A stretch of 32,589 bases of DNA, taken from the NCBI GenBank assembly GCA_039000165.1, contig JAWBTW010000008.1, forward strand, positions 1 through 32,589. The letters are read 5' to 3'. The notes beneath the pieces are model-generated. The model ran no database searches, was not told the origin of the DNA, and worked only from the letters and a program-made list of their open reading frames with translations. A program made the position numbers and the translations under genes. This DNA comes from Candidatus Aenigmatarchaeota archaeon. Its GTDB lineage: Archaea; Aenigmatarchaeota; Aenigmatarchaeia; CG10238-14; SCSR01. This document shows positions 266 to 10,476 of the stretch, one piece after another. Every line of letters starts with the position of its first letter. The first letter of the stretch is position 1.

Positions 266-306
266 GAAACTACCATAGGATAAGCTGTTTATCAAGTCCT
301 GGCAAC
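266..306 (-). other. 3' arm of pre-23S processing stem (BHB)
   Basis: Inverted repeat of 3546-3586; GUCCUGGCAAC/GUUGCCAGGAC helix, GAG bulge, UCAA/UUGA 4-bp helix, UAA bulge, then a long outer helix starting with one mismatch. Confidence 0.9.
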
Positions 307-610
307 CTCGGGCGATTAGGAAAGGCGGGCTGAACGCCTCGCTCGAAAGCTTGGCGCGTACACCCCCTTCCTATCAACCTCCTCGTCTAGGAGAGCCCTC
401 GTTGCTCTACCGTTCCTTGCGGAACAGCAGAGCAATTGGCTGTCTATTTTCCCGGGCGGTTTCGTCCTTAGATGCCTTCAGGACTTATCCGCTATGGCTT
501 AGCTGCCCGGCTGTGCCATGAACAACCGGTAGACCAGAGGCCACGGATGGGTGTTCCTTTCGTACTCACCCATCCTTCCGGTCAGACAGCCAGCACCTCC
601 GGTAGATAGC

Positions 611-644
<34 letters not shown>

Positions 645-743
645 AACGTCCCCCTTTAACCAGTGGGCACCTGTACCCTTGGCCGCTACTGCACGGCCAG
701 GAGGGGGGGAGCCGACAGCGACGCACCAACGCGCCGGGTCAAT

Positions 744-786
744 TTACCCGCTCGTCGCTATCCTGTGGGATGAAAACCCCTGAGCT
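744..786 (-). other. 23S BHB intron, 43 nt, after E. coli-equivalent 2477 (H89)
   Basis: GCCC/GGGU central helix, AC|A and AA|A bulges, GCUC/GAGC intron stem; removal restores GAAAGCCCACAUUGAC. Confidence 0.9.
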
Positions 787-958
787 GTGGGCTTTCACCG
801 GCCACGGGCCCATTATCCCCGAGGTAGCTTTTCTGATACCACCGGCCGCCATTAAGGCGAACCGATGTATCGCTAGCCCAGGCTTTCGCCCTTGGATCCC
901 TCGCTTTGCGGGATCCAATCAACCCAGCTTTTGCGCTTACACTCTACTCCGGATTTCT

Positions 959-1054
959 TTCGGGTGTCAGAAGCTGGTTAAAGCTCATGAGCTACCTCCA
1001 TACTCATCTTTAATCATTCTGGAGCAGTGTAATCATAGCTTCAACTTCTGACAT
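959..1054 (-). other. 23S BHB intron, 96 nt, after E. coli-equivalent ~2306 (H84 loop); contains a box C/D guide layout
   Basis: CGGG/CCCG helix, UC|A and AA|A bulges, 9-bp UGUCAGAAG/CUUCUGACA stem; removal restores GGGUCAGAAAUCC. Confidence 0.95.
976..1045 (-). ncRNA. Intron-encoded box C/D-like guide RNA (predicted 23S G2251 and U2438)
   Basis: C AUGAUUA (1030-1036), guide CACUGCUCCAGA, D' AUGA, C' AAGAUGA, guide ending GAGGUAGCUC, D AUGA (985-988), closing stem GUUGAAGC/GCUUUAAC. Confidence 0.75.
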
Positions 1055-1109
1055 GACCCGGATGAGCTGAGCTTTGGGCGCCCTTGATCTCTTACCAAGG
1101 GCGTACCGC

Positions 1110-1193
1110 TTGCTGGTTTAGGAGCTGTTCAGACCGTATGCCCCTAATCATCTTTTCATAACTTAAGGGACTCTACATTCCAACTCCTAAACT
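1110..1193 (-). other. 23S BHB intron, 84 nt, in the P-loop after E. coli-equivalent G2252
   Basis: GCUG/CAGC helix, GG|A and AA|G bulges, 12-bp intron stem; removal restores GGCUGGGGCGGUAC. Confidence 0.95.
1116..1192 (-). ncRNA. Intron-encoded box C/D-like guide RNA with two 16S targets
   Basis: Degenerate C AUGUAGA, guide UCCCUUAAGUU, D' AUGA, C' AAGAUGA, guide GGGGCAUACGG(U), D CUGA; both 11-mers are perfectly complementary to 16S (6944-6954 and 6652-6662). Confidence 0.85.
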
Positions 1194-1346
1194 CCCAGCC
1201 GAACTGCCCATCTGACGCTGTCCCCTTACGGGTAAGCCGTAAGGTTGAAAAGGGCTGGTGTTACACTTTCCTCTCAGCCTCGGCCGAAGCCTACGCCTGA
1301 TAACGAGTCCCAGCTACTCTATGCAATTTCAACCTTACAGCAACGC

Positions 1347-1377
<31 letters not shown>

Positions 1378-1505
1378 TTTCCCACCGGAGGTCTCTGGCC
1401 TATTCACCAGAACAGCAATTTCGCTGGGTCCCAACCCAGGACAGCGGGGAAGTCGTTAAGCCGTTGAACGGGCCGTCAATTAAACGGCAAGGGATTGCGC
1501 TACTT

Positions 1506-1551
1506 ATGTCGCCCAGGCGGCGTATCATCAAATCAGATGACCGCCCTGAGT
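1506..1551 (-). other. 23S BHB-type intron, 46 nt, after E. coli-equivalent A1927 (just 3' of H69), with K-loop
   Basis: GUCG/CGAC helix, UA|A and AU|A bulges, CUCAGG/CCUGGG stem, imperfect outer helix; internal AUCUGA-UUU-GAUGAU K-loop. Confidence 0.92.
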
Positions 1552-3545
1552 TACGACGGTCAGAGTTACCGCCGCCGTTTGCCGGGGCTTCTCCCGGTTG
1601 GAACCGGGTTTCACACACCGGCACTGGGCAGACCTCAGAGACTGTACAAATCCTTTCGGACTAGCAGTCTCCTATGTTTTTGTTAAACAGTCGCTTCCCC
1701 CTTGTCACTGCGACCTGCTCTCCCTTTCGAGAGAACAGGCACCCCTTCTAGCGAACATACGGGGCCAGTTTGCCGATTTCCCTGGATTGGGTTCTCCCAA
1801 CACGCCTTCGCCTTCTCAGCGACCCTACCTGTGTCGGTTCTCGGTACGATCATGGAGGATCCTTCCAGCTTCCCTTTTCACGGGTTCCAGGAATCGGCCG
1901 AACTCCGCATACGCGGAGCTATTCCTGTCTTCACCTACTTCTCCTCATTACGAGACTCCGTAGGCTTCAACAGTTAACTTGCGTCGGCCTATCCTGAAAC
2001 GTCGGAAAGCTGGCTTGCGTTGCCGCACGTACCTCCATGGTATCGGAATATTAACCGATTTCCCCTTCGAGCGCTTCGGTTAAGAGCGCCCTTAGGATCG
2101 ACTAACTGCCAGCTGACGAACATTGCTGGCAAACCCTGAGGGTTCAGGCGGCTGGGATTTTCACCCAGCTATGCTGCTACTCATGGCAGGATCTTCAATT
2201 CTGCACGGTCCACTTGTTCTTACGAACAAGCTTCTACCCGTGCAGAACGCCTCCCTACCCCCTGCTTTCGCAGGTCTGGGGTATCGACAGCCGGCTTAGT
2301 CCCTTCCATTTTCAGGGCCCAAACCCTCGGCGGGTAAGCTGTTACGCACTTTTTAACTGATGGCTGCTTCTAAGCCTACAGCCCCGCTGTCTATGGGTTT
2401 GGACTCCCTTCTTCGTTTAGCCGGCATTTAGGGGTCTTAACCCCAGGTTGGGTTGTTCCCCTTTTGGGCACCGAGCTTAACCCAGTGCCCTCACTCTGGC
2501 CTTCTCAGGCAGCAGTAGATTCAGAGTTTGACAGGACGGCTGATGCTTTCGCACCTTGACCGTCCAATCAGTCTCTTTACCCTACTGCTTACCTCCGGCC
2601 AGGCTGAGCTGACGCTCATTTCGGGAGGAACCAGCTATCACCGGTCTCGATTGGCTTTTCACCCCTAACCCTGGGTCAACCGAGCGATTGGGTCTCAGCA
2701 CCGGTTCGGACCTCCATTCCTCTTTCGAGGAACTTCATCCTGCCCAGGGTTAGATCGACCGGCTTCGGGTCTTGCTCGAGTAATTTCGGGCGCTTTCACA
2801 CCCCGCCCCACGTCTCTTGCGAGACTACGGGCTTGTCGCTTTCGCTACGGCTACGGGGCTTAAACCCCTTAACCTCACTACTCGAGCAAACTCCCTGCCC
2901 CGTTTTTCAGAACGGATGCTAGGACACTGTAAGCTACTCCTCGTACTCTTCTCTTGCGAGAATTTCCTTCGGAGTAGCACCTTTCATGCCCTAGCTGACT
3001 ATGCCCAACTTGGTTTCAGGCTCTTTTCACCCCGCTTTCGCGGTACTTTTCAGCTTTCTCTCACGATACTAGTCCGCTATCGGACTTGGTTAGTATTTAG
3101 GGTTGGATGTTAATGCCACCCAAATTCCCACTCCATATCCAAGGAATGGTACTCAGGAGACTTGGCATTTTCCTTCTTGCCTTCCCCTACGGGACTATCA
3201 CCCTCTATGGTGGAGCTTTCCAGCTCACTTCGGGTCGACAAGCGAGGAAAGACCCAAGTCCTGTAACTCCACATCCTTTCTTTCTTTTCGAAAGAAAGTT
3301 CGGTTTGCCCTGTTCGGCTTTCGGTCGCCCCTACTCACCGAATCTCGTTTGATTTCTTTTCCTGCGCCTACTGAGATGCTTCACTTCGGCGCGTTCCCTC
3401 TCCTTCCGGAGTAGCCCTTAACGGGCTAGGAATCCCATTCGGCAATCCTGGGGTCAAATCCTCCATGCGGATAACCCAGGCTTATCGCAGCTTGGCACGG
3501 CCTTCTTCGGCTAACCAAGCCGAGCCATCCACCAAGTGGGCTACT

Positions 3546-3586
3546 GTTGCCAGGACCTCTTGACCAGCCTATCCTATGGTAGTTTC
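3546..3586 (-). other. 5' arm of pre-23S processing stem (BHB)
   Basis: Pairs with 266-306. Confidence 0.9.
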
Positions 3587-3593
3587 ATCTTCT

Positions 3594-3655
3594 GGTTTCA
3601 TAAAGACAGTTCGTTCTTCATCTTTCATCAGACGCTGTCAGTTAAGTCATCAACC
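3594..3655 (-). ncRNA. Box C/D-like guide RNA in the 23S leader (module A; predicted U2504 and A2600)
   Basis: C UUGAUGA, guide ending CUGACAGCG(U), D' CUGA, C' AAGAUGA, guide containing CGAACUGUCU, D AUGA, GGUU/AACC ends; matches 23S 712-720 and 614-624. Confidence 0.75.
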
Positions 3656-3702
3656 TCAACTCTTAAACCCTTATTATCAAAATAAGGATTCGCATCAAAG
3701 GA

Positions 3703-3760
3703 AGCTCGTTAGGTGCCCATTTCTTCATCTTTTATCAGTTAGAAGGGCAAACTCATAGCT
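3703..3760 (-). ncRNA. Box C/D-like guide RNA in the 23S leader (module B; predicted U2552)
   Basis: Co-varied K-turn AUGAGUU/AACGA, D' CUGA, C' AAGAUGA; guide UGGGCACCU perfectly complementary to the A-loop at 664-672. Confidence 0.75.
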
Positions 3761-3829
3761 AAACAAAAAGGCCGATGTTCAAGCTAAGCAGACATAACGA
3801 CACCGGCAACTAATTTATTAGTTTTTATA

Positions 3830-3846
3830 ATTTAAAAGCTTTATCC
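3830..3846 (-). promoter_or_regulatory. Putative BRE/TATA promoter of the pre-23S transcript
   Basis: Minus strand GGATAAAGC-TTTTAAAT, about 20 nt upstream of where the GC-richer structured leader begins (~3810). Confidence 0.6.
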
Positions 3847-3900
3847 TATTTAAGCTTTATCGTTTTTTTAAAACGACGTGAGTTGAAGTTAAATTAACAA

Positions 3901-3972
3901 TGGACCGGCGGGGATTTGAACCCCGAACCTCCTCGTTGCAAGCGAGGCGATCTACCGTTGATCTACCGGCCC
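3901..3972 (-). tRNA. tRNA-Ala(UGC)
   Basis: Cloverleaf, CCUCG-CU-UGC-AA-CGAGG anticodon arm, G3-U70 pair, no encoded CCA. Confidence 0.97.
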
Positions 3973-4121
3973 AATTAATTATTTCTAATTTAGTTAAGAT
4001 GAAGATAAAATTTTATCCTTACGATTTTAAGTCGTTCGGAATCCTTTACTTTTTCTGAAAAATTCTTCGAGAAATTTTTCAATTTTTTAAGCTTTAAATT
4101 CTTTACTACTTTTTTATAAGT

Positions 4122-4846
4122 ATGGAAAGGGAGGAAGACATAGAAGTAGAGTTCCAATCAACTCTAGAGGAAATTAAAGAAAAAACGGGCTTTAAAAAAG
4201 AGTGTATTTTAGATCTCTTTATCTTCGAACTTTGCAGAAGAGAAAAAAAGCACATCAAAATTTTAGGAAACATCCAATCGGTATAGCTCATCTTATTTCT
4301 CTGTACATCGATCCCTCTCTCTTGAATTATTCAATAGTCGAAGGTCCTGGAGCACCTATTAAAAAAACTCTTCATCCTTCTTCAACTTTTCTTGATGAAG
4401 AGAAAATAGAGTATGTTGATTATTTTTGTAGCTACTTTCTAATTAGTCCTAATATGCCTGTGCCAAGAAAAGAGTTAAAGGATAGCATCTTAGTCTGTTT
4501 ACTTTCTGATTTAGAAACTCCTTATAGAATAGGATTGATAAATCCTTCTCGAGTATTAGGCATAAAAATTGAAATGGATAAATATGATGAAGGAAACATT
4601 AACTCTCAACTCTGTACCTTCAGAAAATTTTATGGTTGTAACCAAATTCATAGAATTAGTGATGAAGAATTATACGAGTACACAAAAGAAAAAATGAAAG
4701 AGAAGTTTGCAGACTATGAAAAGAGAAGTGAAACCTTGTATAAAATCTTCAAACCATTTTATGAAACTTACAGAAGTTTTCTAATCAAGGAGCTTGAAAG
4801 ATTGGCTAGAGAACTCATGGGAAAACATAGAACATATGTAACGTAA
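4122..4846 (+). pseudogene. Hypothetical protein split by a -1 frameshift (4122-4286 plus frame ending 4846)
   Basis: ATG at 4122 lies about 24 nt after a TTTAAA box; the 54-aa frame overlaps a -1 frame open from 4196 to 4846. Confidence 0.5.
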
Positions 4847-4935
4847 AAATGCAAGTCTTATTAAGTAAAAAGTTCTTTTCATTTTCTTTGCTCTGAAATA
4901 TTAGTGATTTAAAGCTTACGATTATTTAATTTATT

Positions 4936-5742
4936 ATGCCTTTGGTAACAATCCATTACCATACAAAAGAAGGAGAAAAACTTAACCTAGGAAAAACTTC
5001 AAAAAAATTAGCAGAAGATTTTGAAAAAAGCAAAGTAGATTATCTTATTCTTACTGACAAAGCTTTTGCGTGTGAAAAAATCGATTTGCCGATAAAAGCT
5101 TTCAAAAAAATCAAATCTTACCTTAAAGCAAAAAAAGAAAACTTGCTTTTTGGTTTAGAATTTTTAACTTTCGACAATTATCATATTTTGGGTTTATGCT
5201 TAACTCCAGAAAAATGGGAAAACAAGGTATCGCCAAAAAATTTAGAAGATGTTTGCAAGAGTGTAGAAAGGGACGAAGGATTTATTGTCGTTCCGCACCA
5301 GTTTGGACCCTGCGGGTTGGGTAAAAGAGCGGATGAGATAATTAAACTTTACGAAAAAGGTGAAATTTGTCATAAACCTTTCATAGAAGTAAGCTATTAC
5401 TTGGAATCTATCCCTTCATTAAAAAAAGGTCTTAAAAAAGCAAACAAAGAAGCTATAAATTATGCTAGAAAAAACAACTTGGCCTTGATTTCTGGCTTAG
5501 ACTCAAGGTTCAAAAATTTTGATTTAGCTTTTAATTTCTTTAAAGAAGATATAACTAACTGCTTAGAAAAAGCTTCGTTACAAGGCTTTAACAACAATTA
5601 TATAATTCCTTACATTACTCCTTCGCATACTCCCATGCTTATGGAAACCATATATTTGCTAAGAGATCATACGATTGGTTTCCTAAGAACTGGTAAATTT
5701 GAAATAGCTAGTTATTTCCTGAGTCAAATAAGTAAGAGTTAA
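4936..5742 (+). CDS. PHP-domain phosphoesterase-like protein with degenerate metal ligands
   Basis: Motif order HYHT / LTDK / GLE..HILGL / VPHQF / IEV / GLDSR resembles PHP HxH, TDH, GxE, AHP, SDAH. Confidence 0.7.
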   Translation: MPLVTIHYHTKEGEKLNLGKTSKKLAEDFEKSKVDYLILTDKAFACEKIDLPIKAFKKIKSYLKAKKENLLFGLEFLTFDNYHILGLCLTPEKWENKVSPKNLEDVCKSVERDEGFIVVPHQFGPCGLGKRADEIIKLYEKGEICHKPFIEVSYYLESIPSLKKGLKKANKEAINYARKNNLALISGLDSRFKNFDLAFNFFKEDITNCLEKASLQGFNNNYIIPYITPSHTPMLMETIYLLRDHTIGFLRTGKFEIASYFLSQISKS

Positions 5743-5770
5743 ATCTTTTAAAGTATTTTTATTTTCAAAG

Positions 5771-6223
5771 ATGACAGAAGTAAAAAACTATGTTGGAATT
5801 CTTTTCGGGTTAGATAAGGATAGAGACGCGAGAAACTATTGCTTAAAACTGATGAAGAAATACGAGAATAATGAGAATTTTATTTTTGTTGACTTGGAAT
5901 GTTTTGCGAAAAAGGAAAGCAAAATAAAAGTTCTGTCAAAATTCTCTAAAGTTTGTTTTGGTGTGCACAGTTGTGATGATTATTCACCAACGATTTTTGA
6001 ACTAGAGTTCTGTGATAAAGGTATTGTTAGGGATTTGGCTTTTTATTTACAAGAAAAAAAACTTGTCGATAGGTTGTTCCCTTATCCTTATGAGATGTGG
6101 AAGTTAAGAGACTTTCCTACAAATTTTGGTATCATAGAAATTTTCGGAAATGAAAAGGCTTTTCATCGTTTCGAACAATTACTTCTTCAAACTTTGGAAT
6201 TCTTAAAAACTCAAAGAATTTAA
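5771..6223 (+). CDS. Hypothetical protein
   Basis: 150-aa ORF with typical composition; no family recognised. Confidence 0.7.
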   Translation: MTEVKNYVGILFGLDKDRDARNYCLKLMKKYENNENFIFVDLECFAKKESKIKVLSKFSKVCFGVHSCDDYSPTIFELEFCDKGIVRDLAFYLQEKKLVDRLFPYPYEMWKLRDFPTNFGIIEIFGNEKAFHRFEQLLLQTLEFLKTQRI

Positions 6224-6283
6224 ATTTTTGTTAGACGTCTAACATTAATACAACCTATACCTTTCTTTTGATAAAAAGAAAGA

Positions 6284-6318
6284 AGGTAGCGATTTTTGGT
6301 GCCTAGAGGTATTACCGC
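6284..6318 (-). other. 3' arm of pre-16S processing stem (BHB)
   Basis: AAUACCUCUAGG-CACC-AAA-AAUC pairs with GAUU-GGUG-AAA-CCUAGAGGUAUU at 7889-7911; canonical BHB. Confidence 0.92.
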
Positions 6319-6331
6319 ACACAAAGACTTA

Positions 6332-7881
<1,550 letters not shown>

Positions 7882-10368: not shown

Positions 10369-10476
10369 TGCTGGGACCGGGATTTGAACCCGGGACTTCG
10401 GCGTTTCATCTTTCATCTTCTTTCAAAGCTCATAAAGCTTATGAGCGCCGCGTTCTAACCGCTGAACTATCCCAGC
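10369..10476 (-). tRNA. tRNA with CAU anticodon, most likely elongator Met, with a 35-nt intron (10404-10438)
   Basis: G1-C72, CGGCG/CGCCG anticodon stem; best BHB is UCAU/AUGA helix with AA|G and AA|C bulges, i.e. position 38/39. Confidence 0.92.

Follow-up and report, generated by a model that had tools for sequence, protein, structure and literature searches.

The question raised by this locus is what an insert of 96 nt is doing in a gene for 23S rRNA that belongs to an Aenigmatarchaeota archaeon, and whether, as the initial annotation proposed, the splicing of one rRNA intron licenses a modification guided by another. The window (the whole stretch of DNA that was analysed, 32,589 nt) is contig C8 of an assembly of 783 kb in 25 contigs, with 33% G+C and 91.6% completeness, and the sequencing runs that contain its sequence are hot-spring metagenomes. 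Coordinates are those of the window, and both rRNA genes with all their parts lie on the minus strand. The host 23S rRNA gene occupies 296-3556 (Rfam LSU_rRNA_archaea, 2651.8 bits over the full model) and the 16S rRNA gene 6332-7881 (Rfam scan). Since the gap of about 2.8 kb between them (3557-6331) holds AT-rich DNA in which there is coding potential on the plus strand, together with a tRNA-Ala gene (3901-3972), the two genes do not form a compact operon. Alignment to Rfam's model of the archaeal LSU brings out four inserts in the 3′ half of the gene, of 48, 86, 100 and 45 nt at places where the consensus has 2, 2, 4 and 2 nt. Of two smaller inserts in the gene, one has 43 nt (743-785) and lies in domain V near E. 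coli 2500; an insert is also found at this site in G021, and G013 is without it. The other is a 46-nt BHB intron (1506-1551) placed directly 3′ of helix 69, whose hairpin has CUGA-UU-UGAUGA at its tip, a D′/C′ motif that resembles a K-loop, the terminal boxes being absent. It may also be mentioned that Rfam calls a tRNA of 108 nt on the minus strand at 10369-10476 (59.9 bits) which is absent from the ARAGORN calls, and which is probably an intron-bearing tRNA gene.

The 96-nt insert (959-1054) sits in the apical loop of helix 84, at about E. coli 2306/2307, and its structure, assigned by eye, is that of a BHB intron. A central helix of 4 bp is formed by exon CGGG (1060-1057) with intron CCCG (964-961), a bulge of 3 nt stands on each side of it (UCA, 1056-1054, and AAA, 960-958), and an inner helix of 9 bp joins 1053-1045 with 973-965. 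The outer helix has 2 bp only, which makes this a relaxed form of the motif. The predicted splice product is GGGUC|AGAAAUCC, the same as in the intron-less relatives and in the Pyrobaculum loop; the helix 84 loop without an intron reads GGGUCAGAAAUCC in G033, G028 and Pyrobaculum. Across 25 homologous introns, 99 of 100 central-helix cells and 214 of 225 inner-helix cells are paired, with 22 distinct inner helices among them, and the exon side covaries with the intron side (CGGG with CCCG, GAGG with CCUC). These counts refer to the 25 of 45 in-intron copies that were caught by the junction pattern, 20 longer or more divergent introns being left out.

In the minimum-energy fold the stem of mature helix 84 is preferred to the BHB and carries a long hairpin, and on this ground the 96 nt could be taken as an expansion segment of helix 84 that is retained in the ribosome and binds L7Ae through K-turns of the rRNA type. 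We hold this to be extremely improbable. The BHB geometry with its exon-intron covariation speaks against it, as do the orthologues of the insert that exist as free-standing genes (see below) and the metatranscriptome contigs. In the latter, contig ends on either side of a 958|1055 joint are seen in two RNA runs of one study (X11 and X14), the sides of the joint being short and the samples being shared with intron-less relatives. The same two runs join 1109 to 1194, across the neighbouring intron that is described further below, and this joint is absent from the DNA run X1. Other joints in the RNA contigs connect 742 to 786 (three runs) and 1504 to 1551 (skipping 46 nt), and none of these is present in X1 either; a further run, X18, has little coverage of the region beyond the 43-nt and 46-nt joints. 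The RNA contigs cover the intron bins at a depth of 0, as against 108-196 for X1 (191-196 over the 96-nt insert). The sides of the RNA joints measure 19-27 nt, or are loose ends of 8-12 nt, and as the samples also contain relatives without introns (X1 itself has a loose end at 1194) the spliced signal could partly be theirs. The zero RNA cover of the excised intron is to be read as neutral, because small or circular RNAs drop out of contigs and of standard libraries. With the BHB rule, the RNA contigs and the loop of the intron-less relatives all in agreement, the intron ends stay where the initial annotation had put them.

Inside the intron, the sequence has the layout of a box C/D sRNA whose core runs from terminal stem to terminal stem at about 981-1041 (alignment A1; the covariance model R1 covers 982-1041 with an E value of 4.1e-17) and is closed by the stem AAGC/GCUU. 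In the 5′ to 3′ direction of the RNA, the C box AUGAUUA (1030-1036, with UGAU invariant in A1) is followed by the D′ guide, a 12-nt spacer CACUGCUCCAGA (1018-1029), and by the D′ box AUGA (1014-1017), for which homologues such as G022 and G023 have CUGA in the same register. After a D′-C′ loop of 6 nt come the C′ box AUGAGUA (1001-1007), placed by its sequence and by the C′6:D′1 pairing in homologues, the D guide, again a 12-nt spacer, UGGAGGUAGCUC (989-1000), and the D box AUGA (985-988), whose GA is invariant in homologues. The D′ spacer pairs with CUGGG|GCGGU (1198-1194 plus 1109-1105) over 10 bp, of which 8 are Watson-Crick and 2 are G.U. The 5′ half of this P-loop target is C2248-G2252 (1194-1198) and the 3′ half G2253-U2257 (1105-1109), and the fifth base upstream of D′ (1022) faces 1195, which is G2251. 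The D spacer pairs with 829-821 (A2435-C2443) over 9 Watson-Crick bp with no mismatch, its fifth base (993) facing 826, which is U2438. The numbering of G2251 and U2438 comes from our own counting along E. coli as it appears in Additional file 3 of PMC4644070. On recomputation, both guides thus came out as first annotated, the D′ guide across a splice junction with two G.U pairs and the D guide as a perfect 9-mer, with the same two nucleotides opposite the fifth bases.

In the 16S and 23S rRNAs taken together, the best match of the D′ guide is the spliced P-loop, any unspliced site reaching 8 bp at most. Under a lenient score, shuffled guides (n = 1500) do as well somewhere in the rRNAs in 13.8% of cases for D′ and in 28.9% for D. 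Therefore the pairing in a single genome is weakly above chance, and its significance rests on the relatives. The boxes are also off consensus, with AUGAUUA and AUGA in place of RUGAUGA and CUGA. A scan of 900-1250 against Rfam (E up to 10) gave only sub-threshold snoRNA-like matches, among them sR35 with 13.5 bits and snoR114 with 13.8 bits, and the RNA is thus missed by the families known so far.

The sequence model R1, built from the 17 copies of alignment A1, finds the RNA in 77 of the order's 118 genomes (of the 34 high-quality ones, in 26), with one match in the host genome (G000), and in 62 of 151 genomes sampled across the phylum. Where the D′ guide is complete (69 copies), 20 distinct D′ 10-mers occur. 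In all 20 variants the guide base facing G2250 and G2251 is C, and the base facing G2252, G2253, G2255 and G2256 is C or U only, so that opposite these P-loop G residues pairing is always kept. Conservation of the guide in homologues had been named at the outset as a test of the reading, and the guide is conserved. A U faces G2252 in 11 of the 20 variants; a G.U pair beside the target is therefore a common state, and the earlier worry that it might disable the guide falls away. Substitutions in the target tell the same story in part: where 2254 is U, the guide has a compensating A in 4 of 4 genomes (G014, G067, G083 and G103), and where 2257 is C, a compensating G is found in 4 of 8, while several homologues (G029, family f4) have an A.C mismatch facing C2254. 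The D core GAGGUAGCU is present in 51 of the 79 copies found in the order.

The K-turn, claimed from the start to be well formed, gains from the same comparison. Its tandem G.A pairs are present in 68 of 68 copies. The C6:D1 pair is Watson-Crick in 61 of 69 homologues and occurs in four types (U-A, A-U, G-C and C-G), as against a mean of 28.8 on shuffling, with 0 of 10000 shuffles reaching 61; C′6:D′1 is Watson-Crick in 69 of 77. It follows from the C6:D1 covariation that the AUGAUUA and AUGA boxes of the host genome are a compensated U-A form of the canonical G-C pair. We take the comparative evidence as decisive that, as judged by sequence, this is a genuine and conserved dual-guide box C/D sRNA.

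The position of the guide gene varies between genomes. In a DNA search of 41 relatives, the helix 84 insert was found in many, and in G019, G022 and G023 the sRNA core is a stand-alone intergenic gene, their 23S genes being without the insert. On dividing the 79 copies in the order by location, about 44 were found to lie within a helix 84 intron and 34 to stand free in AT-rich DNA between genes; G069 was assigned to neither class, and G057, where AT-rich DNA gives a fuzzy match to the P-loop, was counted as free-standing. Among the in-rRNA copies, 34 have helix 84 exons on both sides, 9 have the P-loop just upstream, and 1 remains (G064). As a rule there is one guide copy per genome, either intronic or free. 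In the same class but outside the order, the RNA is present in 22 further genomes, and all 20 copies examined (20/20) are free-standing with terminal stems of their own. The intron location is therefore the derived one, and the distribution across genomes indicates that an old guide gene moved, within this order, into the gene of its own substrate, the 23S rRNA. That the guide gene itself is housed in an rRNA intron is a larger point than the split target. Separately, one genome of the set (G039, locus L024) has a long AT-rich insertion of >190 nt in the region of helices 83 and 84. Taken as a whole, we consider it quite likely that 959-1054 is a BHB intron whose body is a working dual-guide box C/D sRNA gene for G2251 and U2438.

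The second half of the question concerns the neighbouring intron. At 1110-1193 an 84-nt BHB intron, identified by its geometry and its homologues, splits the P-loop between G2252 and G2253. Exon GCUG pairs with intron CAGC, the 3-nt bulges are GGA and AAG, the inner helix has 9 bp, and a cut after the second bulge base gives CUGGG|GCGGU exactly. This intron carries a C/D sRNA of its own (AUGUAGA, 12 nt, AUGA, AAAG, AUGAUUA, 12 nt, CUGA), and both of its guides match the 16S rRNA over 11 perfect bp each, with targets near 6950 and 6659. It is found in 5 of the 118 genomes of the order (G000, G001, G015, G095 and G097, in three genera), where the guides are kept and the BHB helices have changed by compensation. 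A model of its sRNA (R2) searched over the 118 genomes gave, beyond these five introns, only weak partial matches (E >0.001) and no free-standing homologue. In 36 other in-rRNA copies of the helix 84 guide the P-loop is unsplit, one further match being dubious, and G060, from the same genus as G015, is also without the P-loop intron. In the G095 assembly (1.7 Mb, 4% contamination; loci L051 and L101), two versions of the 23S are present, one with and one without this intron.

On the unspliced RNA 5 bp of the P-loop pairing are possible, against 10 bp on the ligated exons; a high level of methylation is stated to need a duplex of 8-10 bp (PMC7089733, citing Yang 2016). We also looked for other routes to the same modification, as had been suggested with the initial reading. 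Only one guide that is complementary to the P-loop and followed by a box was found in the 783 kb, with no second G2251 guide detected in this assembly, and PF00588 has no match in the 91.6%-complete genome, where no enzyme of the SpoU/RlmB type was thus found. RlmB, of the SpoU family, is the bacterial Gm2251 methyltransferase. It acts on the same nucleotide as is predicted here, but it is a stand-alone protein enzyme. Since the target is split and no alternative route was found, G2251 methylation, if there is any, would be carried out by this RNA after ligation of the P-loop exons.

The proposal that splicing licenses modification can accordingly be kept in one part and not in the other. The 10-bp target exists only on the ligated exons, and that splicing must precede methylation is a logical necessity in this genome, provided that G2251 is methylated at all. 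What the data do not support is the notion of an evolved licensing device, because the target is split in 5 of 118 genomes and the guide-target pair is class-wide and older. The old and class-wide pair together with the rarely split target points to a late insertion into an existing target, and the ordering is probably an incidental result of late intron gain and not an evolved checkpoint. The ordering would moreover cover only G2251 methylation relative to P-loop ligation, and it says nothing on which of the two introns is spliced first.

It could be held, to the contrary, that the P-loop intron is kept in order to delay or license G2251 methylation, as a quality control of the catalytic centre that fixes a hierarchy of LSU maturation. 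For this one may cite the guide, which is intact in all five split-target genomes of three genera, and the compensatory changes that maintain the helices of the P-loop intron. We find such a checkpoint unlikely, as the intron is confined to the five genomes and is lacking in G060 alongside G015, as the guide-target pair is far older and works with no such intron wherever the guide is free-standing and in no fewer than 36 intronic copies, and as the 16S-directed sRNA that the intron carries is enough to explain its retention.

The opposite reading is that the P-loop intron has disabled the D′ guide in the host genome, leaving it as a relic while the D guide for U2438 alone works. A genus in which something similar has happened does exist. 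In g6 the D′ half is lost, unrelated sequence replacing the P-loop guide half, and the C′/D half with the U2438 guide is kept; helix 84 introns of this type are found at L018 (G010), L095, L096, L099, L102, L105, L107 and L108. The P-loop guide is therefore dispensable in some lineages. Even so, in the split-target genomes the D′ guide pairs fully in 5 of 5 cases, and in G097 it differs from that of G000 by two substitutions that both preserve pairing, which argues for continued selection. For the host genome we therefore regard a relic D′ guide as very unlikely.

A further possibility is that the intron RNA serves mainly as a chaperone in cis, transiently holding the P-loop and 2435-2443 during the folding of domain V, with methylation absent or secondary. 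The arrangement of the targets would suit this, as they flank the intron within one domain, the P-loop about 55-110 nt upstream and 2435-2443 about 130 nt downstream, and an aid to folding has been proposed for dual guides with nearby sites (PMC4644070). The C that never varies opposite G2250 and G2251, the constant spacing of 12 nt and the intact K-turn signatures, however, fit the catalytic N+5 geometry. Orthologues that are free-standing carry the same guides and are unable to act in cis, and in the host genome the P-loop pairing is impossible before splicing. A role chiefly as chaperone is thus rather improbable in our estimate.

The working guide RNA that we favour would operate as follows. 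The genome encodes EndA, the splicing endonuclease, and RtcB, an RNA ligase, as well as adjacent genes for fibrillarin and Nop5 and a gene for L7Ae. The tRNA-splicing endonuclease would cut the pre-rRNA at the two 3-nt bulges and RtcB would join the exons. The excised 96-nt RNA, probably circularised, or else the intron while still in the precursor, may bind L7Ae at the C/D and C′/D′ K-turns, so that action either in trans or in cis can be envisaged. The L7Ae-bound RNA would then recruit Nop5 and fibrillarin. The resulting RNP is predicted to 2′-O-methylate G2251 of the P-loop under the D′ guide, and U2438, in the strand leading into the peptidyl-transferase ring, under the D guide. In evolutionary terms, the sRNA is the orthologue of a free-standing gene of the whole class that was relocated into the rRNA gene in this order, and a second BHB intron, probably a late arrival, has inserted inside the D′ target in the host genome and four others, so that the duplex can form on ligated exons only.

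The nearest known system is the C/D guide in the intron of pre-tRNA-Trp of Euryarchaeota (Haloferax volcanii, and sR50 of Pyrococcus), where splicing and methylation are coupled (PMC7994747). As here, a complete C/D guide lies in a BHB intron and has two targets in the host RNA (PMC7994747). In that case, however, the host is a tRNA, the targets lie in the exons adjoining the intron, and none is split by another intron; its methylation needs the intron-containing RNA or an RNA supplied in trans. In the present case the 23S rRNA is the host, 55-130 nt separate the intron from its targets, and one of these would come into being only after a second splicing event. With regard to the nucleotides modified, C/D sRNAs predicted for G2251 are listed in PMC4644070 for Thermoproteus tenax (sR7), Methanopyrus kandleri (sR13) and a Pyrobaculum, and for U2438 for Nanoarchaeum equitans (sR14) and Sulfolobus (sR128). 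They share with the present RNA the same rRNA nucleotides at N+5 (PMC4644070). As described there, they differ from it in being independent genes with other partner sites, e.g. G2520 with U2544 in the alignment numbering (PMC4644070); the pairing of G2251 with U2438 in one RNA and the location in an intron are features of the Aenigmatarchaeota family.

With regard to the intron itself, the resemblance is to the ORF-less 23S and 16S introns of Staphylothermus marinus and the Thermoproteales, which also have a BHB, are processed by the tRNA splicing endonuclease and sit in conserved rRNA cores (PMC3608112; PMC4496867). The rRNA introns known from these accounts are empty or encode homing endonucleases, whereas the intron at 959-1054 carries a guide RNA. 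A review of 2013 speaks, in its treatment of rRNA introns, of their non-coding RNA products as still to be found (PMC3608112), and where a review of 2021 sets out the gene contexts of archaeal C/D RNAs it names intergenic positions, positions beside tRNA genes and tRNA introns, with rRNA introns unmentioned in that account (PMC7994747). Our own search of the full-text literature, in which the string C/D itself is unsearchable, turned up no paper in which a C/D guide is described within an intron of rRNA. There is also a likeness to the intronic C/D snoRNAs of eukaryotes, in which the guide comes from an intron of a ribosome-linked host transcript and is co-expressed with the ribosome (PMC7994747). 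The eukaryotic hosts, however, are spliceosomal pre-mRNA introns processed by exonucleases, while here the host is the substrate rRNA and the splicing is of the protein-only BHB kind.

We also offer a broader reading, tentatively, and would give it somewhat less than an even chance. In this order, the rRNA mini-introns that encode no protein may be guide RNA genes. The old P-loop/U2438 gene would have entered helix 84, would thereby be made one to one with its substrate, and would be set free by the tRNA-splicing machinery, probably in circular form. A second guide intron, aimed at the 16S, would then have landed in the target of the first, with an obligatory cascade as the result, in which splicing comes before methylation of the catalytic centre, and with modification of the small subunit tied to processing of the large one.

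For the biology of these archaea, the finding would give a cellular function to ORF-less rRNA introns, until now regarded as empty or as selfish elements, in that one of them carries a guide RNA. It would provide an archaeal parallel to the intronic snoRNAs in which the host transcript is at the same time the substrate. The evolutionary step can be dated, as the gene is free-standing class-wide and intron-borne in one order, and this bears on the origin and persistence of BHB introns. The split P-loop target may serve as a natural experiment on the timing of catalytic-centre methylation in the assembly of the large subunit. For the annotation of intron-rich archaea it means that guide targets should be predicted on the spliced rRNA, and that the introns themselves should be searched for guide genes.
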